The notes beneath the pieces are model-generated. The model searched no databases. It saw only the letters and a list, made by a program, of their open reading frames with translations, and was not told the origin of the DNA. Shown here piece by piece: positions 4,738 through 19,840 of a DNA stretch of 64,000 nucleotides (the first letter of the stretch is position 1; each line of letters begins with the position of its first letter). The DNA lies in NCBI GenBank assembly GCA_050946575.1, contig JBMNVB010000005.1, positions 39,383 to 103,382 on the forward strand, written 5' to 3'. A program made the position numbers and the translations under genes. The stretch is from Anaerovoracaceae bacterium (GTDB lineage Bacteria > Bacillota > Clostridia > Peptostreptococcales > Anaerovoracaceae).

Positions 4738-4799
4738 ATTGCTAAATACTTTAGACTCGTGATATAATTTTTACATTAGTTGACAATTATCAACTAAGT
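4738..4799 (+). promoter_or_regulatory. Putative sigma-A promoter (TTGCTA-18-TGATATAAT) followed by the 22-bp palindrome TTAGTTGA-CAATTA-TCAACTAA
   Basis: Extended -10 at 4761-4769. Perfect 8-bp inverted arms at 4778-4799, about 50 nt upstream of the GNAT gene. Confidence 0.5.
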
Positions 4800-11597: not shown

Positions 11598-11809
11598 GAA
11601 ACAGGAATCCGCATTTTTGGGTGGGGTATTTTGAAATAGAGAAATTTCTCCACCCAATTTCCAACGTTTATCGGGCATTGATCCGGCGAAAAACGCGATT
11701 TCCCGATAATCCGTCCGGATCGATGCCTGCAGCCCAGTAAAAAAGGTGGGGAGATTTGTATATACGAAATTACCCCACCATTTTTGCTCATTCTCCAGAA
11801 AATGGAAGG
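11598..11809 (+). repeat. MITE-like triple-hairpin repeat element, copy F1 (left end diverged)
   Basis: Shares GGTGGGGTATTTTGAAATAGAGAAATTTCYCCACC .. GGGCATTGATCCGG .. GGTGGGGAnATTT..ATTACCCCACC ATTTTTGCTCATTCTCCAGAAAATGGAAGG with the four other copies. Confidence 0.85.
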
Positions 11810-11901
11810 CTGCGAGGCCCCCAGCACCGTCCCGACCCCGGCCGAATCAATGCAAAATCCCGCGTCGCAGCCTTGTTCCGGCTCCGAAAATCCGGATCGG
11901 C

Positions 11902-11985
11902 CCGGCCGAAATCCAGGAATGAGCCTGGCGCGCCGCCCCGACCCCGGCCGAAATCCAAGAATGAGCCTGGCGCGCCGTCCCGACC
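11902..11985 (+). repeat. Two 42-nt tandem 'solo left-end' copies of the element terminus
   Basis: CCGGCCGAAATCCA(G/A)GAATGAGCCTGGCGCGCCG(C/T)CCCGAC x2. The third repeat continues into full copy F2. Confidence 0.8.
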
Positions 11986-12204
11986 CCGGGCGAAATCCGG
12001 GAATGAGCATTTTAGGTGGGGTATTTTGAAATAGAGAAATTTCCCCACCCAAATTCCAACGTTTATCGGGCATTGATCCGGCAAAAAACGCGATTCCGCG
12101 AAAATCCGACCGGATCAACGCCTGAAACCCACAAAAAAAGGTGGGGAAATTTTCATATATGAAATTACCCCACCATTTTTGCTCATTCTCCAGAAAATGG
12201 AAGG
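11986..12204 (+). repeat. MITE-like triple-hairpin repeat element, copy F2
   Basis: Near-identical to F3 and to the reverse complements of 32781-32996 and 33070-33286. Confidence 0.9.
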
Positions 12205-12233
12205 TCGCGAGGTCCGCGGCGCCGTCCTGATCC

Positions 12234-12433
12234 CGGCCGAAATCCAGGAATGAGCATTTTAGGTGGGGTATTTTGAAATAGAGAAATTTCCCCACCCAAT
12301 TTCCAACGTTTATCGGGCATTGATCCGGCGAAAAACGCGATTCCGCGAAAATCCGGACGGATCAATGCCTGAAACCCACCAAAAAAGGTGGGGAAATTTT
12401 CATATACAAAATTACCCCACCATTTTTGCTCAT
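12234..12433 (+). repeat. MITE-like triple-hairpin repeat element, copy F3 (right end truncated)
   Basis: Same architecture; homology ends after CCCCACCATTTTTGCTCATT. Confidence 0.9.
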
Positions 12434-12609
12434 TTGCCCTTTTTTCCGCCCCCCCGGGCCGGGCCGCTGACCCGCCCCATCGGACCATGGCTCTGCATTT
12501 TGCTTTTCCGTCCCCCCGGACCGTGGTCCCGCGACCTGCCCGACCTGACCCCGGCACCGCATACGCTCTCCAGAGTCGCCGCAGAGCCCTATCCGGAGCC
12601 CGAAAACAG

Positions 12610-12666
12610 TTGACGCAGGCGGCCTGCACAGGTATAATCGAAATTAGTTTGATAATCAAAGTAATT
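12610..12666 (+). promoter_or_regulatory. Consensus sigma-A promoter (TTGACG-17-TATAAT) with an overlapping 25-nt palindromic operator (FabT-box-like)
   Basis: TTGACG 12610-12615, TATAAT 12633-12638. AATTAGTTTGATAATCAAAGTAATT at 12642-12666 has 11 of 12 arm positions complementary around A12654. Confidence 0.65.
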
Positions 12667-12677
12667 ACTGTCACGAA

Positions 12678-12935
12678 CCGGCCTGCGCCCGTCACGAGCG
12701 GAGCACCGGACCGGAGAAAAAGGACCCGGCCCGAGCCCAACACGAGCGGAGCACCGGACCGGAGAAAAAAGACCCGGCCCGAGCCCCGAACGAGCGGAGC
12801 ACCGGATCGGAGAAAAGGACCCGGCCCGAGCCCAACACGAGCGGAGCACCGGGCCGGAGAAAAAGGACCGGCCTGCGCCCGTCACGAGCGGAGCACCGGA
12901 CCGGAGAAAAAGGACCGGCCCTCGCCCGAAAACGC
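12678..12935 (+). repeat. Five tandem 47-48-nt GC-rich repeats in the fab leader region
   Basis: ACGAGCGGAGCACCGGACCGGAGAAAAAGGACCCGGCCCGAGCCCAAC-like units start at 12694, 12742, 12790, 12837 and 12884. Confidence 0.85.
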
Positions 12936-13038: not shown

Positions 13039-13992
13039 ATGCTTGATATATGCGAAATCCTCGGAACGAGGTATCCGATAATACAGGGAGCGATGGCGAG
13101 GATCGCGGATGCGGAGCTCGCGGCGGCCGTGAGCAACGGCGGCGGTCTCGGGATCATTGCGTCCGGCGGGGCGCCGGCGGACTGGCTGCGCGGCGAGATC
13201 GCGAAGGCGAGGAGCCTGACGGACAGGCCGTTCGGCGTGAATCTGATGCTGCTGTCCGAGAACATCGATGAACTCGTTGATGTCGTATGCGACGAGAAAG
13301 TGAGCGTCGTTACGACGGGAGCGGGGAACCCCGGAAAGTACATGGAGAAGCTGAAGGGCGCCGGGATAAAGGTCATCCCGGTCGTGGCTTCGTGCGCGCT
13401 CGCGGTCAGGATGCAGCGCGCGGGAGCGGACGCGGTAGTCGCGGAAGGAACGGAAGCCGGCGGGCACATTGGCGAGATCGCGACAATGGCGCTCACGCCG
13501 CAGGTCGTTGATGCCGTGGATATCCCGGTCATCTGCGCGGGCGGCGTCGCCGACGGACGGGGCCTTGCGGCGGCGTTCATGCTCGGCGCGAAGGGCGTGC
13601 AGGTCGGGACGCGGTTCCTCTCCGCGGACGAATGCAACATCGCGCCGGAATATAAAGAGGCGATCCTCAAGGCGAAGGACACGTCGACGACTGCCACGGG
13701 CCGGCGGTTCGGCCACCCGGTCAGATGCCTGCGCAACAAACTGACGCGCCGGGTGCTCAAACTCGAGGCCGAGGGCGGAACGGAAGAAGAAATGAACGAG
13801 ATGTGCACGGGGAGCCTGTCGGCGGCCGTCGTGCGCGGCGACGTGGAGAACGGCTCGGTCATGAGCGGCCAGGTCGCGGGACTCGTTAAGAAAACGCAGC
13901 CGGCGGCGGAGATCATCCGCGAAATGTTCGAGGAAGCGGCGGAAATATATAAAAGCCGCGAAGCCATCTGCACGAAAGAGAGGAGCATATGA
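13039..13992 (+). CDS. fabK: Enoyl-[ACP] reductase II (FMN-dependent, FabK)
   Basis: YPIIQGAMARIAD, AEGTEAGGHIGE and GGVADGRG..GAKGVQVGTRF motifs. First gene of the fab cluster. Confidence 0.9.
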   Translation: MLDICEILGTRYPIIQGAMARIADAELAAAVSNGGGLGIIASGGAPADWLRGEIAKARSLTDRPFGVNLMLLSENIDELVDVVCDEKVSVVTTGAGNPGKYMEKLKGAGIKVIPVVASCALAVRMQRAGADAVVAEGTEAGGHIGEIATMALTPQVVDAVDIPVICAGGVADGRGLAAAFMLGAKGVQVGTRFLSADECNIAPEYKEAILKAKDTSTTATGRRFGHPVRCLRNKLTRRVLKLEAEGGTEEEMNEMCTGSLSAAVVRGDVENGSVMSGQVAGLVKKTQPAAEIIREMFEEAAEIYKSREAICTKERSI

Positions 13993-14999
13993 AAATAGGA
14001 CTTGTGTTTTCCGGACAGGGCGCGCAGTACCCGGGCATGGGCCGGGATCTCTGCGAGAACAGCCCCGAGGCGGCGGCCGTTTTCGACGCGGCCGGAGACG
14101 AGATCAGGAAGCTCTGCTTTGACGGCACGAAGGAGCAGCTCGCGCAGACGCGCGTGACGCAGCCGACGATATATACAGTGACGATGGCGGCGTACGAGGC
14201 GTTCATGGCATCAATGCGGAAAGCCGGTCTTTCGGAGATCACGGAGGTGACGGGCCGCGCGGGATTCAGTCTCGGCGAATATGCGTCGCTCACGTCGGCC
14301 GGGGTCATCGACGACATCCGCAAGGGACTGGAGATCGTCGAGAAGCGCGGCGTGTTCATGCAGGAAGCGGGGCAGGACGAGAACGGAGAAAACATCAGCG
14401 GCATGACGGCGGCGCTCGGGAGAAGAGCGGCGGTCCTTGACGCGGTGGAAAAGGCGGCGCTCGAGACGGGAATGGTGATAGAGGCCGTGAACTTCAACAC
14501 GGCGTCGCAGACGGTCGTCGCGGGCGAGAAACCGGCGCTCGAGGCGTTTGCCAGGATCGCGAAGGAAAACAGGATCAAGGCGATACCGCTCAGTGTCAGC
14601 ACAGCGTTCCACTGCGCATTGATGAAGCCGGCGGCGGAGAGGCTGCTCCCGGTGCTTCAGGCCGCGGAGCTGAAATACCCGGACGCTCAGGGCATTCTCT
14701 ATTCCGACTCGACGGCGCGCGACATCATGGACGGATACGAAGGAGATCCGGATGACGCTGAAGCGGCCGGCGGGTATCTTGCCGAAATGATGGCGGCGCA
14801 GGCGATGAGCCCGGTGCACTGGCAGGAGATAACTGAGGACATGGCGGCGCGCGGCGCGAAGGCGATCATTGAATTCGGGCCGGGGAAGACGCTGACGGGG
14901 TTCACGAAGAAGAATGCGAGAGGCGTGCTGGCGCTGCACGTTGAGGATACGGAAAGCCTGGACGAGACGATCCGGGCGCTCTCAGAAAATGCGGGATAA
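13989..14999 (+). CDS. fabD: Malonyl-CoA:ACP transacylase
   Basis: FSGQGAQYPGMG and GFSLGEYASL (active-site Ser) motifs. 4-nt overlap with fabK. Confidence 0.9.
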   Translation: MKIGLVFSGQGAQYPGMGRDLCENSPEAAAVFDAAGDEIRKLCFDGTKEQLAQTRVTQPTIYTVTMAAYEAFMASMRKAGLSEITEVTGRAGFSLGEYASLTSAGVIDDIRKGLEIVEKRGVFMQEAGQDENGENISGMTAALGRRAAVLDAVEKAALETGMVIEAVNFNTASQTVVAGEKPALEAFARIAKENRIKAIPLSVSTAFHCALMKPAAERLLPVLQAAELKYPDAQGILYSDSTARDIMDGYEGDPDDAEAAGGYLAEMMAAQAMSPVHWQEITEDMAARGAKAIIEFGPGKTLTGFTKKNARGVLALHVEDTESLDETIRALSENAG

Positions 15000-15028: not shown

Positions 15029-15772
15029 ATGCTCAAAGGAAAGAACGCCGTCGTTACGGGCGGCGACAGAGGTATCGGACGCGCGTCCGCGGAGCTGTTC
15101 GCGAAAAACGGCGCGAACGTGCTGATCGTTTACAGAAGCAATGACGAGCTCGCGAAGGAAGTCGCGGAAGAAATATCAGAGAAATACGGAGTCCGCGCAC
15201 TGACGTACAAAGGGGACGTCGCGGATCCGAAGACCGCGGAAGGCGCGGTCGCGCTGGCGAAGGAGGAATTCGGCTCGGTCGACATCCTCATGAACAATGC
15301 GGGGATCACGGCGGACAAGCTGCTCGCGCGCATGACGCCGGAGGATTTCTCCCGCGTCGTCGACGTGAATCTGAACGGCAGCTTCAATTTCATGAAGGCC
15401 GCTTCGAAGGTCATGATGAAGCAGCGCTCAGGGCGGATCATAAACATGGCGTCTGTCGCGGGCGTGAAGGGCAATCCGGGCCAGGTGAATTACGCCGCGT
15501 CGAAGGCCGGGGTCATCGGCATGACGCTTTCGGCCGCGAAGGAACTCGGAAGACGCGGGATCACAGTGAACGCCATCGCGCCGGGGTTCATTGACACGGA
15601 CATGACGGCGGTCCTGACGGACGAACAGAAAAGCAATGCCGCGGCAAACATCGCGCTCGGGCGCGCCGGCAAACCGGATGACGTGGCCGGAGTGGCGCTG
15701 TTCCTTGCGAGCGACCTCGCGTCGTATGTCACGGGACAGGTAATAGCTGTTGACGGCGGACTGATAATGTAA
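15029..15772 (+). CDS. fabG: 3-oxoacyl-[ACP] reductase
   Basis: SDR motifs TGGDRGIG, NNAG and YAASKAG. Confidence 0.9.
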   Translation: MLKGKNAVVTGGDRGIGRASAELFAKNGANVLIVYRSNDELAKEVAEEISEKYGVRALTYKGDVADPKTAEGAVALAKEEFGSVDILMNNAGITADKLLARMTPEDFSRVVDVNLNGSFNFMKAASKVMMKQRSGRIINMASVAGVKGNPGQVNYAASKAGVIGMTLSAAKELGRRGITVNAIAPGFIDTDMTAVLTDEQKSNAAANIALGRAGKPDDVAGVALFLASDLASYVTGQVIAVDGGLIM

Positions 15773-15795
15773 CAATGAGGAGAAAGGATCGGGAA

Positions 15796-17025
15796 ATGAG
15801 AAGAGTAGTTGTGACGGGATTCGGCGATGTGACACCTGTCGGGAACGACGCGGAGACATCGTGGAAGAATATCAAGAACGGCGTGAACGGCATCGACAGG
15901 ATCACGCACTTCGACACGGAAGGACAGAAATGCGTGATGGGCGCCGAAGTGAAGGATTTCGAGTATCCGGACAGGCGCGCGGCGAGGCGGCTGGATCCGA
16001 CGTCGCAGTTCGCGCTGACCGCCGCAGAGGAAGCTCTTAAGATGAGCGGGATCGTGAGCGGGGAGAATGTGGACCCGCTCAGGTTCGGAGTATACGGCGG
16101 AGCCGGCATCGGCGGAGTGCAGACGCTCGAGGGCCAGATACGCAAGGCTGAGAGCCGCGGCGATGTGAGACACGTCTCGGCATTGATGATCCCGATGACG
16201 ATCGCGAACCTGATCGCCGGCAACATTGCCATCAAGTTCAAGGCGAAGGGCCCGTGCATCGGCGTCGTGACAGCGTGCGCCGCGGGCACGCAGGCGATCG
16301 GAGAGGCGTTCAGGAACATCAAGGACGGCTACACCGATGTCATATGCGCCGGAGGATCCGAAGCAGCATTCGCGCCGGCCTGCTTCGCCGGTTTCGGGAC
16401 GATGAAGGCGACGACGCGGAAGGAAGACAGGGACCGCTGCTGCATCCCGTTCGACGCGGAGCGCGACGGGTTCGTCATGGGCGAAGGCGCGGGATTCGTA
16501 GTGCTGGAGGAGCTCGAACACGCGAAGGCGCGCGGAGCGAAGATCTACGCGGAGATCGCAGGCTACGGCTCTACGTGCGACGCGTATCACGTGACGATGC
16601 CGGAACCGGAGGGCGAAGGCGCGGCCAGCTGCATGAGACTCGCACTCGAAGAAGCGGGCATTGATGCGAAGGAAATCGATTACATCAATGCGCACGGCAC
16701 GGGTACGCCGTATAACGACGAGTTCGAGACTAAGGCCATAAAGATGGTGTTCGGAGAAGACACGAAGGTACCGGTCAGTTCGACGAAGAGCATGACGGGA
16801 CATCTGCTTGGCGCGGCCGGGGCGATAGAGGCGATTTTCTGCATACAGGCGATCAGGGACGGGTTCATACCGGCGACTATAAACTACAAGGTGCCGGATC
16901 CGAAATGCGATCTCGACTATGTCCCGAACGAAGGCAGGAATGCCGAGCTTTCGTGCGTTCTTTCGAACTCCTTCGGGTTCGGCGGACACAACGGAAGTAT
17001 TGTCATCAAAGCGCCGTCGGTGTAA
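15796..17025 (+). CDS. fabF: 3-oxoacyl-[ACP] synthase II
   Basis: VVTGFG.., active-site region ACAAGTQAIGEA, INAHGTGT, SNSFGFGGHN. Confidence 0.9.
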   Translation: MRRVVVTGFGDVTPVGNDAETSWKNIKNGVNGIDRITHFDTEGQKCVMGAEVKDFEYPDRRAARRLDPTSQFALTAAEEALKMSGIVSGENVDPLRFGVYGGAGIGGVQTLEGQIRKAESRGDVRHVSALMIPMTIANLIAGNIAIKFKAKGPCIGVVTACAAGTQAIGEAFRNIKDGYTDVICAGGSEAAFAPACFAGFGTMKATTRKEDRDRCCIPFDAERDGFVMGEGAGFVVLEELEHAKARGAKIYAEIAGYGSTCDAYHVTMPEPEGEGAASCMRLALEEAGIDAKEIDYINAHGTGTPYNDEFETKAIKMVFGEDTKVPVSSTKSMTGHLLGAAGAIEAIFCIQAIRDGFIPATINYKVPDPKCDLDYVPNEGRNAELSCVLSNSFGFGGHNGSIVIKAPSV

Positions 17026-17050: not shown

Positions 17051-17854
17051 ATGAGCAGATGGAATAAACGTGATGTCAGAGGCTGGGCGGACAGGGCTGC
17101 CGCTTCGGTCAATGACGATTTTGAAAGAAGACGGAGGCAGGCCATGAAGAGTTCTGCCGTTAAAAAAGCGAGAAAGCGCGCGGATAAGTTCATGGACGAA
17201 GCGGCTGACTTCAGAGACAGCGCGATAGATTTCGCGGGTGAGACGCTCCAGGACGCGGCTGATTTCGCGGAGGATAAATTCGCGGACGCGGCGAAGGCCG
17301 CGGAGCCGTATATGACCAGGGCGAGGAAGCGCGCCAGGAACGCGGGGGACATTGCCGCCGAGCGAGCGAAATTCGCAGCGCAGAGGGCCCAGGAGATCAG
17401 CGAGGCTGCGGCCGTGAGGGCGCAGAACGCAGCGGAACGTGCGCAGGAGCTGAGTGACGCGGCGGCCGTAAGGGCTCAGAACGCGGCGGACCGCGCGAGA
17501 GAACTCAGGAAACGCGCCGAAGAGGCCCGTGAAGAGGCGGAAGACGTCGAAGTCATCGCCGTCGTCGAAGAAGAGGGCGAAAAGATGTCGCGCCGTGCGA
17601 AGAAGGCAGAAAAAAAGGCCCGCAGGGCTGCGCAGAAGAAATACGATAAAATGATGGATCGCACGGAAAAGAAGGAAGCCCGCCGGAATGAGAAGAAGGC
17701 AGGCAGGACTGAGACCAGCGATTCATATACGGACGAAATGGAGCTGGTACCCGTGAAAAAGAAAAGGAAAACGCGCAAGGCGGGGTATGCGGTGCTTGCC
17801 GCGCTCATCGCGCCGATAGCGTTCATCCTGATGAAGGACAGAAAAGATTTTTAG
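17051..17854 (+). CDS. Hypothetical tail-anchored, highly charged alpha-helical repeat protein
   Basis: GGAGGTGG RBS 6 nt before the ATG. Ala/Arg/Glu/Lys-rich with internal repeats (AAVRAQNAAERAQELSDAAAVRAQNAADRARELRK). Single C-terminal TM helix (AGYAVLAALIAPIAFILM). No recognisable family. Confidence 0.6.
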   Translation: MSRWNKRDVRGWADRAAASVNDDFERRRRQAMKSSAVKKARKRADKFMDEAADFRDSAIDFAGETLQDAADFAEDKFADAAKAAEPYMTRARKRARNAGDIAAERAKFAAQRAQEISEAAAVRAQNAAERAQELSDAAAVRAQNAADRARELRKRAEEAREEAEDVEVIAVVEEEGEKMSRRAKKAEKKARRAAQKKYDKMMDRTEKKEARRNEKKAGRTETSDSYTDEMELVPVKKKRKTRKAGYAVLAALIAPIAFILMKDRKDF

Positions 17855-17916: not shown

Positions 17917-18351
17917 ATGAACAGAATTTTGGATAAAGAAGAGATAAAAAAGATACTTCCGCACCGGGAGCCGTTCCTCCTTATTGACGAAGTGACGGAG
18001 CTCGTGCCTGGGGAAAAGGTGACGGCCGTTAAGCATGTGTCGGAAGACGAATATTATTTTAAGGGGCATTTCCCGGGACATCCCGTGATGCCGGGCGTGC
18101 TTATAGTCGAATCGCTCGCGCAGGCCGGGGCGGTCGCCGCATTGTCGATACCGGGGAACGAGGGACGCATCGCGTTCTTCTCGGGAATAAACAATGCGAA
18201 ATTCAGGCGGCAGGTAGTGCCGGGAGACGATCTCAGGCTCGAAGTTGAACTCACACATTTAAGGTCGCGCGCCGGGAAGGGCAGCGCGAAGGCGTACGTC
18301 GGGGATGACCTCGCGTGCCAGTGTGATATCTCATTCATGTTCGCCGACTGA
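17917..18351 (+). CDS. fabZ: 3-hydroxyacyl-[ACP] dehydratase
   Basis: LPHREPFLLIDEV..HFPGHPVMPGVLIVESLAQ signature. Confidence 0.9.
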   Translation: MNRILDKEEIKKILPHREPFLLIDEVTELVPGEKVTAVKHVSEDEYYFKGHFPGHPVMPGVLIVESLAQAGAVAALSIPGNEGRIAFFSGINNAKFRRQVVPGDDLRLEVELTHLRSRAGKGSAKAYVGDDLACQCDISFMFAD

Positions 18352-18361
18352 CGGAGGAGTT

Positions 18362-19840
18362 ATGGAAACATCCGAACGCATCGACAAACTGCTTGTGAAT
18401 ATCTTCAATGTCGTCCTCAAAATGGAGGAGAAGGCATTGATGAGTTCGAGCACGCACGATCTTTCGCTGAACGAGATGCACACTCTCGCGGCGATCGGGA
18501 GCGAGCCGCTCAGCGGGCGCGGGGCGCGTCCGAAGACGATGACCCAGGTGGCGGCCATGCTGAAGATCAAGGTGAGTACGCTGACCACTTCCGTAAACCG
18601 CCTTGTCCGCAAGGGCTATGTCAGCAGGTCGCGCGCGCAGAGGGACGGCAGGATAGTGCTGCTCCGGCTCACGAAGGCCGGCCGCGACGCGGTGGAGGAG
18701 CACCGCGCATATCATAAGAAGTTCATCGCGGAGACGCTCGCGCTGCTCGATCCGCAGGAGCAGGAACTGCTCGCACGTTCGCTTGAGAGAATAAACGAAT
18801 TCGTATCGATGCAGCAGACGCCGCCGATCCGTGACCCCGAAAGTTTCAGGGCGAAGCCGCTCAGGATAGGGAATGTTGTTGTGCCGGTGCCCGTGTTCCA
18901 GGGCGGGATGAGCATCGGAGTATCGCTCGGAGGCCTTGCCGGAGCGGTCGCGAAAGAAGGGGCCGCGGGATGCGTCGCGGCCGCCGAATGCGGATTCGCC
19001 GAAGAGGATTACGAAGAGAACAGGACCGAGGCGAATATCAGAGTGCTCGAGCGCGAGATAAAAAAGGCGAAGAAGATCTCGGCCACGGGGACGCCGGGGC
19101 CCGTGGCGGCGAATATTCCTTATACGACGGAAAAATACGCGGACTACGTGGACGCCGCCATCAATGCGGGCGCTGACATGATCGTTACCGGAGCCGGCGT
19201 ACCGACATCTCTGCCCGGGATAGCCGAAGGAAGGAACGTAGCTCTCGTGCCCGTGATCTCATCACCGCGCGGCGCCCGGGTCATCATGAAGAACTGGAAG
19301 AAAAAATACGGGCGCATACCGGACGCCTTCATTTTCGAGGGCCCGTTTTCCGGAGGAACGCTCGGATACAGCGAGGAGAAGATAGATATCGCGCGCGAGG
19401 AATTCTACGCGAACATCGCGGAGACGAAGCAGGAGCTCGATGCCGCCGGCGGATGTCCTCTCATCGTGGGCGGCGGTATCAGGACGCTGCAGGACGCGCA
19501 GAAAGCTTACGCGTACGGCGCGGACGGCGTGCAGATAGGGACCAGATTCGTAACGACGGAGGAATGCGACGCGCCGGAGGGCTTCAGGAAGGCGTATCTC
19601 GACGCCGGCGAAGACGATGTGGCGCTGGTCGAAGGCGACGGCGGAAAGCCGTGCTGGGCCGTGAGGAACGCGTATGTGAGGAAACTCGAATCGGGCGGCG
19701 AACCGCTGCCGCTGACTGAAGCGGCCCTAATAACCGCCGGAGGAGACCTCGAGAACGGGATCATCATGTGCGGACGCGACTGCTGGAAGAACGACCGCAT
19801 CGAAAAAGTCGCGGATATAATCGCGGAGTTCACAGTGTGA
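18362..19840 (+). CDS. Fusion protein: N-terminal MarR-family winged-helix regulator plus C-terminal FabK/nitronate-monooxygenase-like TIM barrel
   Basis: Residues ~1-150 are MarR-like (LSLNEMHTLAAIG..VSTLTTSVNRLVRKGYV..DGRIVLLRLTKAGR). The rest aligns to FabK (VFQGGMS.., GGGIRT..GADGVQIGTRF), but the GGH motif reads GGTLG. GGAGGAG RBS. Confidence 0.8.
   Translation: METSERIDKLLVNIFNVVLKMEEKALMSSSTHDLSLNEMHTLAAIGSEPLSGRGARPKTMTQVAAMLKIKVSTLTTSVNRLVRKGYVSRSRAQRDGRIVLLRLTKAGRDAVEEHRAYHKKFIAETLALLDPQEQELLARSLERINEFVSMQQTPPIRDPESFRAKPLRIGNVVVPVPVFQGGMSIGVSLGGLAGAVAKEGAAGCVAAAECGFAEEDYEENRTEANIRVLEREIKKAKKISATGTPGPVAANIPYTTEKYADYVDAAINAGADMIVTGAGVPTSLPGIAEGRNVALVPVISSPRGARVIMKNWKKKYGRIPDAFIFEGPFSGGTLGYSEEKIDIAREEFYANIAETKQELDAAGGCPLIVGGGIRTLQDAQKAYAYGADGVQIGTRFVTTEECDAPEGFRKAYLDAGEDDVALVEGDGGKPCWAVRNAYVRKLESGGEPLPLTEAALITAGGDLENGIIMCGRDCWKNDRIEKVADIIAEFTV

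Follow-up and report, generated by a model that had tools for sequence, protein, structure and literature searches.

The window analyzed here is a 64,000-nucleotide (nt) stretch from an Anaerovoracaceae bacterium (C5:39383-103382 of genome G000, which is 1.51 Mb and 93% complete). It carries an operon for type II fatty acid synthesis (FASII) whose last gene, at 18362-19840 on the plus strand, encodes P0002, a protein of 492 residues in which a FabT-like MarR repressor domain is joined to a barrel derived from the enzyme FabX. The barrel has lost the catalytic histidine and the iron-sulfur ligands of FabX and has kept its contacts for cofactor and carrier protein. On balance, P0002 is probably an autoregulated FabT-type repressor with a non-catalytic, FabX-derived receptor domain for acylated acyl carrier protein (acyl-ACP), a reading that we hold with modest confidence. 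Our literature search on FabT+FabX fusions, MarR+nitronate monooxygenase (NMO) fusions, and FabX in Clostridia, with subscription journals outside its scope, found no description of this architecture.

A FabT-like regulator joined to a FabX-derived barrel

The fusion gene is a single uninterrupted open reading frame (ORF) that starts 10 nt after the fabZ stop codon, with a GGAGG ribosome-binding site 4-10 nt 5' of it. Pfam assigned residues 32-99 to MarR/MarR_2 and residues 174-491 to NMO (E value 6e-33). An AlphaFold2 model, for which 69 family members were the input, has a predicted local distance difference test (pLDDT) score of 90.8 and a predicted template modeling (pTM) score of 0.86. 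The winged-helix domain spans residues 1-150 (18362-18811), and the catalytically degenerate barrel, a triosephosphate isomerase (TIM) barrel of the flavin mononucleotide (FMN) type, spans residues 171-492 (18872-19840). A conserved linker, MQQTPPIRDPESFRAKPLRIG, lies between them (residues 151-170; 18812-18871) and has the consensus MQxxxPxKxxxPxxLKPxxLG in the fusion family. A preliminary description of this DNA had read the gene as one polypeptide with a MarR/FabT-like winged helix and an NMO-family barrel, and the ORF and Pfam results confirm that. The same description had allowed for an assembly or frameshift artifact at the junction. This is not so, as 114 clusters share the architecture and an identical protein occurs on three contigs. 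With the architecture conserved in more than 110 clusters and in six genomes of the family, a frameshift or chimeric assembly origin is ruled out.

The N-terminal half appears to be FabT-like, again as first described. The top NCBIfam regulator model was NF050133 (FabT), which scored 113 bits over residues 10-148; the next MarR model scored 45 bits. The structure of Streptococcus pneumoniae FabT (PDB 6jbx) matches residues 5-148 with an E value of 1e-20, and the AlphaFold2 model of residues 1-150 has the MarR-type helix/wing pattern. Genome G055 has an unfused FabT at the head of a fabH-acpP-fabK operon, and the domain shares 46% identity with it. FabT of Streptococcus, Enterococcus, and Lactococcus (PDB 6jbx; PMC9083066; PMC11452403) has the same winged-helix MarR domain, and its gene likewise sits inside the fab operon that it regulates, a regulation that we infer for the fusion from its operator sequence. 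Acyl-ACP enhances the binding of FabT to DNA, and canonical FabT binds acyl-ACP without an additional domain (PMC9083066). A similar acyl-ACP feedback logic would be expected here. Unlike FabT, which has about 145-150 residues and is encoded by the first gene of its operon, the fusion protein of 492 residues adds a FabX-derived domain of 320 residues and is encoded by the last gene. A further difference is that this organism has one ACP and, in its 93%-complete genome, no Fak system and no evident dedicated AcpB-type co-repressor.

The operon promoter carries a close match to the FabT operator. The best promoter-like site between 12400 and 20100 is TTGACG-17 nt-TATAAT at 12610-12638 on the plus strand, with 11 of 12 consensus positions matched. 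Beginning 8 nt after its -10 box is the operator AGTTTGATAATCAAAGT at 12646-12662, a palindrome of the form TTTGAT-A-ATCAAA. Read on the minus strand, this site matches the streptococcal FabT consensus ANTTTGATTATCAAATT (PMC11452403) at 16 of 17 positions, and both are thus 17-nt palindromic promoter operators of the same sequence class. Matches this good are expected by chance 0.02 times per window. The preliminary description had placed a FabT-box-like operator at 12642-12666, and this was borne out. A scan of the 1.51-Mb genome for a wider FabT regulon returned no further site with zero or one mismatch, so that the box at 12646-12662 is the sole one. The box is identical upstream of fabK in two relatives (G002 and G010) and near-identical in two more (G011 and G025). 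The same layout of promoter followed by box occurs in G002, G010, G011, and in G025, in which the two genes are unfused.

The C-terminal half derives from FabX and not from FabK. In a sequence search of the PDB, Helicobacter pylori FabX (7e1q, 9lt5, and others) matched it with an E value of 6e-51, whereas FabK structures gave 1e-13 to 3e-16. Foldseek with the model also placed FabX first (E value 4e-29, TM score 0.81) and FabK next (E value 8e-19), and the FabK model TIGR03151 scored only 84 bits on the fusion barrel against a cut-off of 453. Together, these three comparisons rule out FabK ancestry. The preliminary description, which spoke of a FabK/NMO barrel, was thus correct as to an NMO-family FMN TIM barrel but not as to its parent, which is FabX rather than the enoyl-ACP reductase FabK. 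FabK (PDB 2z6i, 7l00, 5gvh) belongs to the same superfamily and has a GGH motif at the homologous position, but its kinship with the barrel is far weaker, and it has neither a FabX-type ACP dock nor the Fe-S subdomain. The true FabK, an enoyl-ACP reductase II, is a separate gene of the same operon (13039-13992, plus strand; TIGR03151 at 470 bits, cut-off 453) and carries AEGTEAGGHIGE, as had been noted. Public records name the fusion proteins "nitronate monooxygenase." This label hides both the regulator half and the FabX ancestry, and it is an annotation error to fix.

Residues lost and kept across the fusion family

FabX of H. pylori (HP0773) is an FMN/[4Fe-4S] decanoyl-ACP dehydrogenase/isomerase of unsaturated fatty acid synthesis. 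Its His182 is catalytic, with both H182F and H182Q abolishing activity, and Ser273 positions and stabilizes this histidine. C300, C304, C308, and C320 ligate an essential [4Fe-4S] cluster that plugs the tunnel exit. ACP docks on helix α7 through K152, K159, R160, and R164, plus T130 (all PMC8626469).

These positions were compared in an alignment of FabX with 160 members of the family. In P0002, Thr333 (codon ACG, 19358-19360, within FEGPFSGGTLGY) aligns with His182, a position that is also His in FabK, and the exchange of His for Thr reported in the preliminary description is therefore real. Ser273 is replaced by Gly425, Arg280 by Trp, and L/M101 by Pro. An altered active-site loop, GDGGKPCW (residues 425-432; 19634-19657), stands in place of SPVGMPGR. 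A deletion of approximately 20 residues, at 19703-19711, takes C300, C304, and C308 of the [4Fe-4S] cysteine loop, and the fourth ligand, C320, is Pro450. No CxxxCxxxC-type motif is present anywhere in the P0002 sequence. Going by the published FabX mutants, the fusion barrel should be catalytically inactive.

Other parts of FabX are retained. The FMN contacts N99, E175, Q240, and T243 are present as N251, E326, Q391, and T394, and the FMN glycine motifs remain at G181/G182 and G371/G372. The FMN-binding blocks described earlier, VFQGGMS and GGGIRT..GADGVQIGTRF, are both in the fusion. The phosphopantetheine (PPant) contacts S149 and G184 are S300 and G335. In the ACP dock, T130 corresponds to T282, K152 to R303, K159 to K310, and R164 to K315. 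The putative ACP-dock helix SSPRGARVIMKNWKKKYGR has seven basic residues, as does the FabX helix when the two are compared at the sequence level.

The pattern of loss within the window's clade is targeted. Across 135 His-type proteins, 71 alignment columns reach at least 90% conservation. Of these, 56 are kept in the window's clade and 15 differ, among them L101, H182, S273, P274, G276, R280, and the four cysteines. Ser273, Pro274, Gly276, and Arg280 are each at least 94% conserved in His-type proteins and are all changed in the clade, with Gly276 unchanged in the window protein itself. Each of the clade's four clusters has Thr at the Thr333 position and carries the PCW motif.

A homolog search of 5.8 billion proteins showed how widely the fusion occurs. 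Almost all of the best 120 matches were full-length two-domain proteins, from Anaerovorax, Aminipila, Sinanaerobacter, and Anaerovoracaceae and Eubacteriaceae metagenome-assembled genomes, and the fused architecture was found in 114 of the retrieved clusters. Among whole genomes, two more from this genus and members of four further genera in the family carry the fusion, in each case as the last gene of fabK-fabD-fabG-fabF-fabZ-fabT::fabX, and synteny is kept in five further genomes. In 90 of the 114 fusion clusters (~80%), E175, H182, S273, and all four cysteines are kept, and from these residues most fusions look like catalytically complete FabX enzymes. The earlier idea of an inactivated-enzyme fusion holds in that the window protein has lost the histidine, but this is not fusion-wide, as about 80% of clusters keep the histidine and the four cysteines.

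We built a quick tree of 124 rows and a careful tree of 46 rows; the trait columns were included in both, which is a minor caveat to the groupings that follow. The fusions are monophyletic with support of 100/99, and the trees point to a single fusion of fabT and fabX. Proteins without the Fe-S loop form one clade (support 98/87) with loop loss as one change, and its deletion thus appears to have happened once and to be common to the whole degenerate clade. Position 182 in this clade is T, Y, L, I, Q, or R. Many independent losses of the histidine were also considered, and this proved only partly true. The careful tree needs three changes, namely in the large degenerate clade, in P0128, and in the unresolved P0020 and P0124. 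These last two (Y and Q, respectively) lie just outside the degenerate clade and have lost the histidine but still keep the cysteines, which suggests that the histidine was lost before the Fe-S loop. A separate lineage, P0128 and G012, has lost the histidine and some FMN contacts and has kept the cysteines.

Across the degenerate subclades, R152, K/R159, S149, and G184 are invariant, and R164 is K in five of seven subclade consensuses. FMN contacts are gone in some of these subclades. The degenerate clade is old, with identity between subclades going down to ~48%.

Unfused relatives bear on how the fusion arose. Genome G025 has separate fabT (161 residues) and fabX (358 residues, with the histidine and four cysteines) genes at the 3' end of the same fab operon, after fabZ (L030, G025:C6, 7102-8705). 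A TAG stop and a 41-nt spacer occupy the linker position. This gene pair could represent the state before the fusion or a later split of the fused gene. Elsewhere in the order, other families have free-standing FabX-like proteins of 355-376 residues, and their fabT is the first gene of a fabH-acpP-fabK operon. One of these families has a stand-alone fabX immediately preceded by two FabT boxes with one mismatch each (L032, G055:C9, 9148-9206), and in G047 fabT and fabX are divergent with FabT boxes between them. Because these boxes adjoin unfused fabX genes, fabX would have been in the FabT regulon before the fusion.

One aberrant family member was also observed. P0116, a protein of 384 residues from a 2.8-kb metagenome contig, has a FabG-like N-terminus that runs into a Thr-type FabX-like domain at the point matching query residue 148. 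Either a deletion variant or a chimeric assembly could explain it.

Proposed acyl-ACP sensing and competing explanations

A tethered acyl-ACP receptor is the most economical reading of P0002 because it accounts for the FabT domain and its operator, the stripped FabX domain with its ACP dock and FMN pocket kept, the selection on that domain, and the published facts on FabT and FabX. In this proposal, a MarR dimer would bind AGTTTGATAATCAAAGT and thereby cover the predicted start point of transcription for fabK-fabD-fabG-fabF-orf-fabZ-fabT::fabX. The dead FabX domain would capture acyl-ACP, the FabT co-repressor, in its substrate tunnel, and occupancy of this domain would strengthen DNA binding. 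Accumulating acyl-ACP would then shut down FASII, including the repressor's own gene. The Fe-S plug of FabX restricts chain length to approximately C8-C10, and with it removed, the tunnel may read longer acyl chains. The preliminary description had suggested a pseudoenzyme sensor. That idea fits the selection, the kept ACP-dock residues, and the drift of catalytic positions, with FabX as the parent in place of FabK; the sensing of acyl- or enoyl-ACP is the part that we infer.

Purifying selection on the His-less FabX-like domain is strong. In a comparison of the window gene with its nearest relative (L036, 87% amino acid identity), the ratio of nonsynonymous to synonymous substitution rates (dN/dS) was 0.079 for the FabX-like half and 0.075 for the MarR domain, compared with 0.075 for FabK and 0.054 for FabG, all approximate values from the sole usable pair, in which dS is ~1. 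Within the Thr clade, the two halves are conserved to a like degree, with identity of 65-67% in the barrel and 59-63% in the MarR domain.

Besides the approximate nature of the dN/dS values, several points weigh against a dedicated acyl-ACP receptor. At 50-60% MarR identity, barrel identity is 0.49 in degenerate lineages and 0.63 in His-type lineages, and this faster divergence of the barrel relative to the MarR domain may reflect partly relaxed constraint. Canonical FabT senses acyl-ACP by itself, and by analogy the appended domain is not obviously needed. The MarR half scores under the NCBI FabT equivalog cut-off (113 versus 200 bits). The kept FMN contacts would be equally in keeping with a redox function or with leftover enzyme activity. 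Furthermore, FabH, DegV/FakB, and an AccA/AccD-type carboxyltransferase were not found in the 93%-complete assembly, and the apparent lack of FabH and Fak weakens any argument from FASII physiology as to what needs sensing.

One alternative, which we consider unlikely, is that the barrel is still an enzyme with altered chemistry. It would be isomerase-only, or an NAD(P)H-dependent enoyl-ACP reductase acting via other residues, and P0002 would then be a bifunctional "trigger enzyme," as His-type fusions probably are. Candidates for the altered chemistry are the clade-specific Cys431 in the KPCW loop and a Tyr in the sister clade. The intact FMN contacts, PPant contacts, and ACP dock favor this possibility, as do the purifying selection and the PCW motif shared by the whole clade. 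FabX-type proteins can also run reductively, as overexpression of the Fusobacterium nucleatum homolog partly offsets FabK inhibition (PMC11091888). However, FabX needs its [4Fe-4S] cluster and loses activity when His182 is replaced by Phe or Gln (PMC8626469), and P0002 has lost not only this histidine but also its Ser partner, Arg280, and all four cysteines. The residues found at position 182 are chemically unrelated, which is unexpected for a catalytic position, and the operon already encodes a normal FabK.

Of much the same low probability is a flavin redox or NAD(P)H sensor, in which the redox state of FMN would modulate DNA binding by the FabT domain and couple FASII to reducing power. The four FMN side-chain contacts and the glycine motifs are intact in P0002 and in most degenerate subclades too, and FabX H182F still holds ~80% FMN (PMC8626469). 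Against such a role, H182Q cuts the FMN content of FabX to 28% (PMC8626469), and the L-type subclade and the G012 lineage are without FMN contacts (N99S/A, Q240L, T243D) yet keep the fusion and the ACP-dock residues, and flavin is therefore not the common denominator. The genome also already has a Rex-like redox repressor.

We give the same low standing to a purely structural role, an oligomerization or stability scaffold left as a frozen accident of fusion with the MarR domain alone sensing as in streptococcal FabT. Canonical FabT does work without an added domain (PMC9083066), the pTM score suggests that both halves may pack as one unit, and the barrel diverges faster in degenerate lineages, but a dN/dS of 0.08 across 322 residues exceeds the constraint expected of a mere scaffold, and the surface ACP-dock residues R303, K310, and K315 and the PPant contacts S300 and G335 are specifically kept.

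If P0002 is a tethered acyl-ACP receptor, it could be placed among regulators built from enzyme folds. FapR senses malonyl-CoA with a hot-dog fold, MocR/GabR/PdxR carry an aminotransferase-like domain on a GntR winged helix-turn-helix, ROK repressors have a sugar-kinase fold, and PutA and BirA are trigger enzymes. The common design is a DNA-binding domain with a pathway-enzyme-derived domain for metabolite recognition. The folds and ligands differ, and in the FabT::FabX family active-looking and dead versions coexist. To our knowledge, none of these regulators uses an NMO/FabX barrel or pairs with FabT.

A broader and more tentative possibility concerns the family as a whole. The FabT::FabX proteins might form a natural series, from a bifunctional trigger enzyme, in which an active FabX would make the cis double bond and report acyl-ACP flux to its own DNA-binding domain, to a pure long-chain acyl-ACP sensor in the window's clade, with the Fe-S plug deleted and the tunnel opened. 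This conversion would have gone along with FASII reduction. FabH was not found in any of the five genomes with a His-less fusion (G000, G001, G002, G010, and G012), and the three genomes whose FabX is of the His type, fused or adjacent (G011, G016, and G025), all have it; the genomes compared are few and phylogenetically non-independent.

The system is of interest for several reasons. FabT is the master regulator of membrane fatty acid synthesis in streptococci and enterococci, and the existing structural model of how it recognizes acyl-ACP is deemed unreliable (PMC9083066). A FabT covalently tied to a FabX-type domain, the acyl-ACP complex of FabX having been solved, offers a direct experimental route. 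If the natural series suggested above is real, it would provide the first structural handle on acyl-ACP recognition by a FabT-class repressor and would direct attention to FabX as the enzyme with which this clostridial lineage makes unsaturated fatty acids anaerobically. In Anaerovoracaceae and related anaerobes, candidate enzymes for unsaturated fatty acid synthesis are the His-type relatives. The family also presents a case of enzyme-to-sensor conversion with active-looking and dead versions side by side, plus one unfused pair.

Genome setting and the rest of the fab operon

Two NMO genes only, FabK and the fusion, are present in the genome, and no second FabT-like or FabX-like gene was found in the 93%-complete assembly. 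Other FASII and lipid genes include one ACP gene (C7, ~15.1 kb) beside the Rex-like gene, PlsX, and PlsY. The genome further encodes a single 12S-type carboxyltransferase (C7:48618-50081) and, in a frame of 1184 residues (C2:175096), a biotin-carboxylase domain.

Between fabK and the fusion, the plus strand carries fabD (13989-14999), fabG (15029-15772), and fabF (15775-17025), which were assigned from the ORF list, from synteny by tblastn, and from the Pfam labels of the orthologous contig L036. The fabZ gene follows at 17917-18351; its L036 ortholog has a FabA/FabZ Pfam label, and the fabZ genes of relatives share 58-78% identity with it. A genus-specific ORF of 267 residues, rich in Lys, Ala, and Glu, lies between fabF and fabZ (17051-17854, plus strand). 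A Pfam search with it gave no family. The closest relative has a conserved copy (L036, 4261-5064), conservation in G002 is partial, and other genera lack it.

The 5' leader of the operon contains a 47-nt unit repeated in tandem 5.3 times (12678-12929), between the FabT box and the fabK start. Because the identical box in G002, of the same genus, stands only 41 nt from fabK, this array appears to be a recent insertion. Just upstream of the fab promoter, at 11600-12434, are approximately three copies of a 247-nt repeat with GGTGGGG...CCCCACC hairpins, together with a 42-nt sub-repeat. These repeats look like miniature inverted-repeat transposable elements (MITEs) or repetitive extragenic palindromic (REP) elements.

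Two further palindromic sites were observed. A FabT-like box with two mismatches (ACTTAGATAATCAAAGT) lies upstream of the -35 box of a TTGAAT-17-TATAAT promoter, ahead of a gene at C2:48048-49547 that encodes an HMGL-like + PYC_OADA protein of 465 residues. This protein resembles a 5S transcarboxylase or oxaloacetate-decarboxylase alpha subunit, and its gene is a possible second target of FabT with a connection to the supply of malonyl-CoA. In the window, the palindrome TTAGTTGACAATTATCAACTAA at 4778-4799 trails a -10 box ahead of another gene. We did not count it as a FabT box, as its arms (AGTTGA) differ and its spacer is 6 nt; another regulator of the MarR type probably uses it as its operator.

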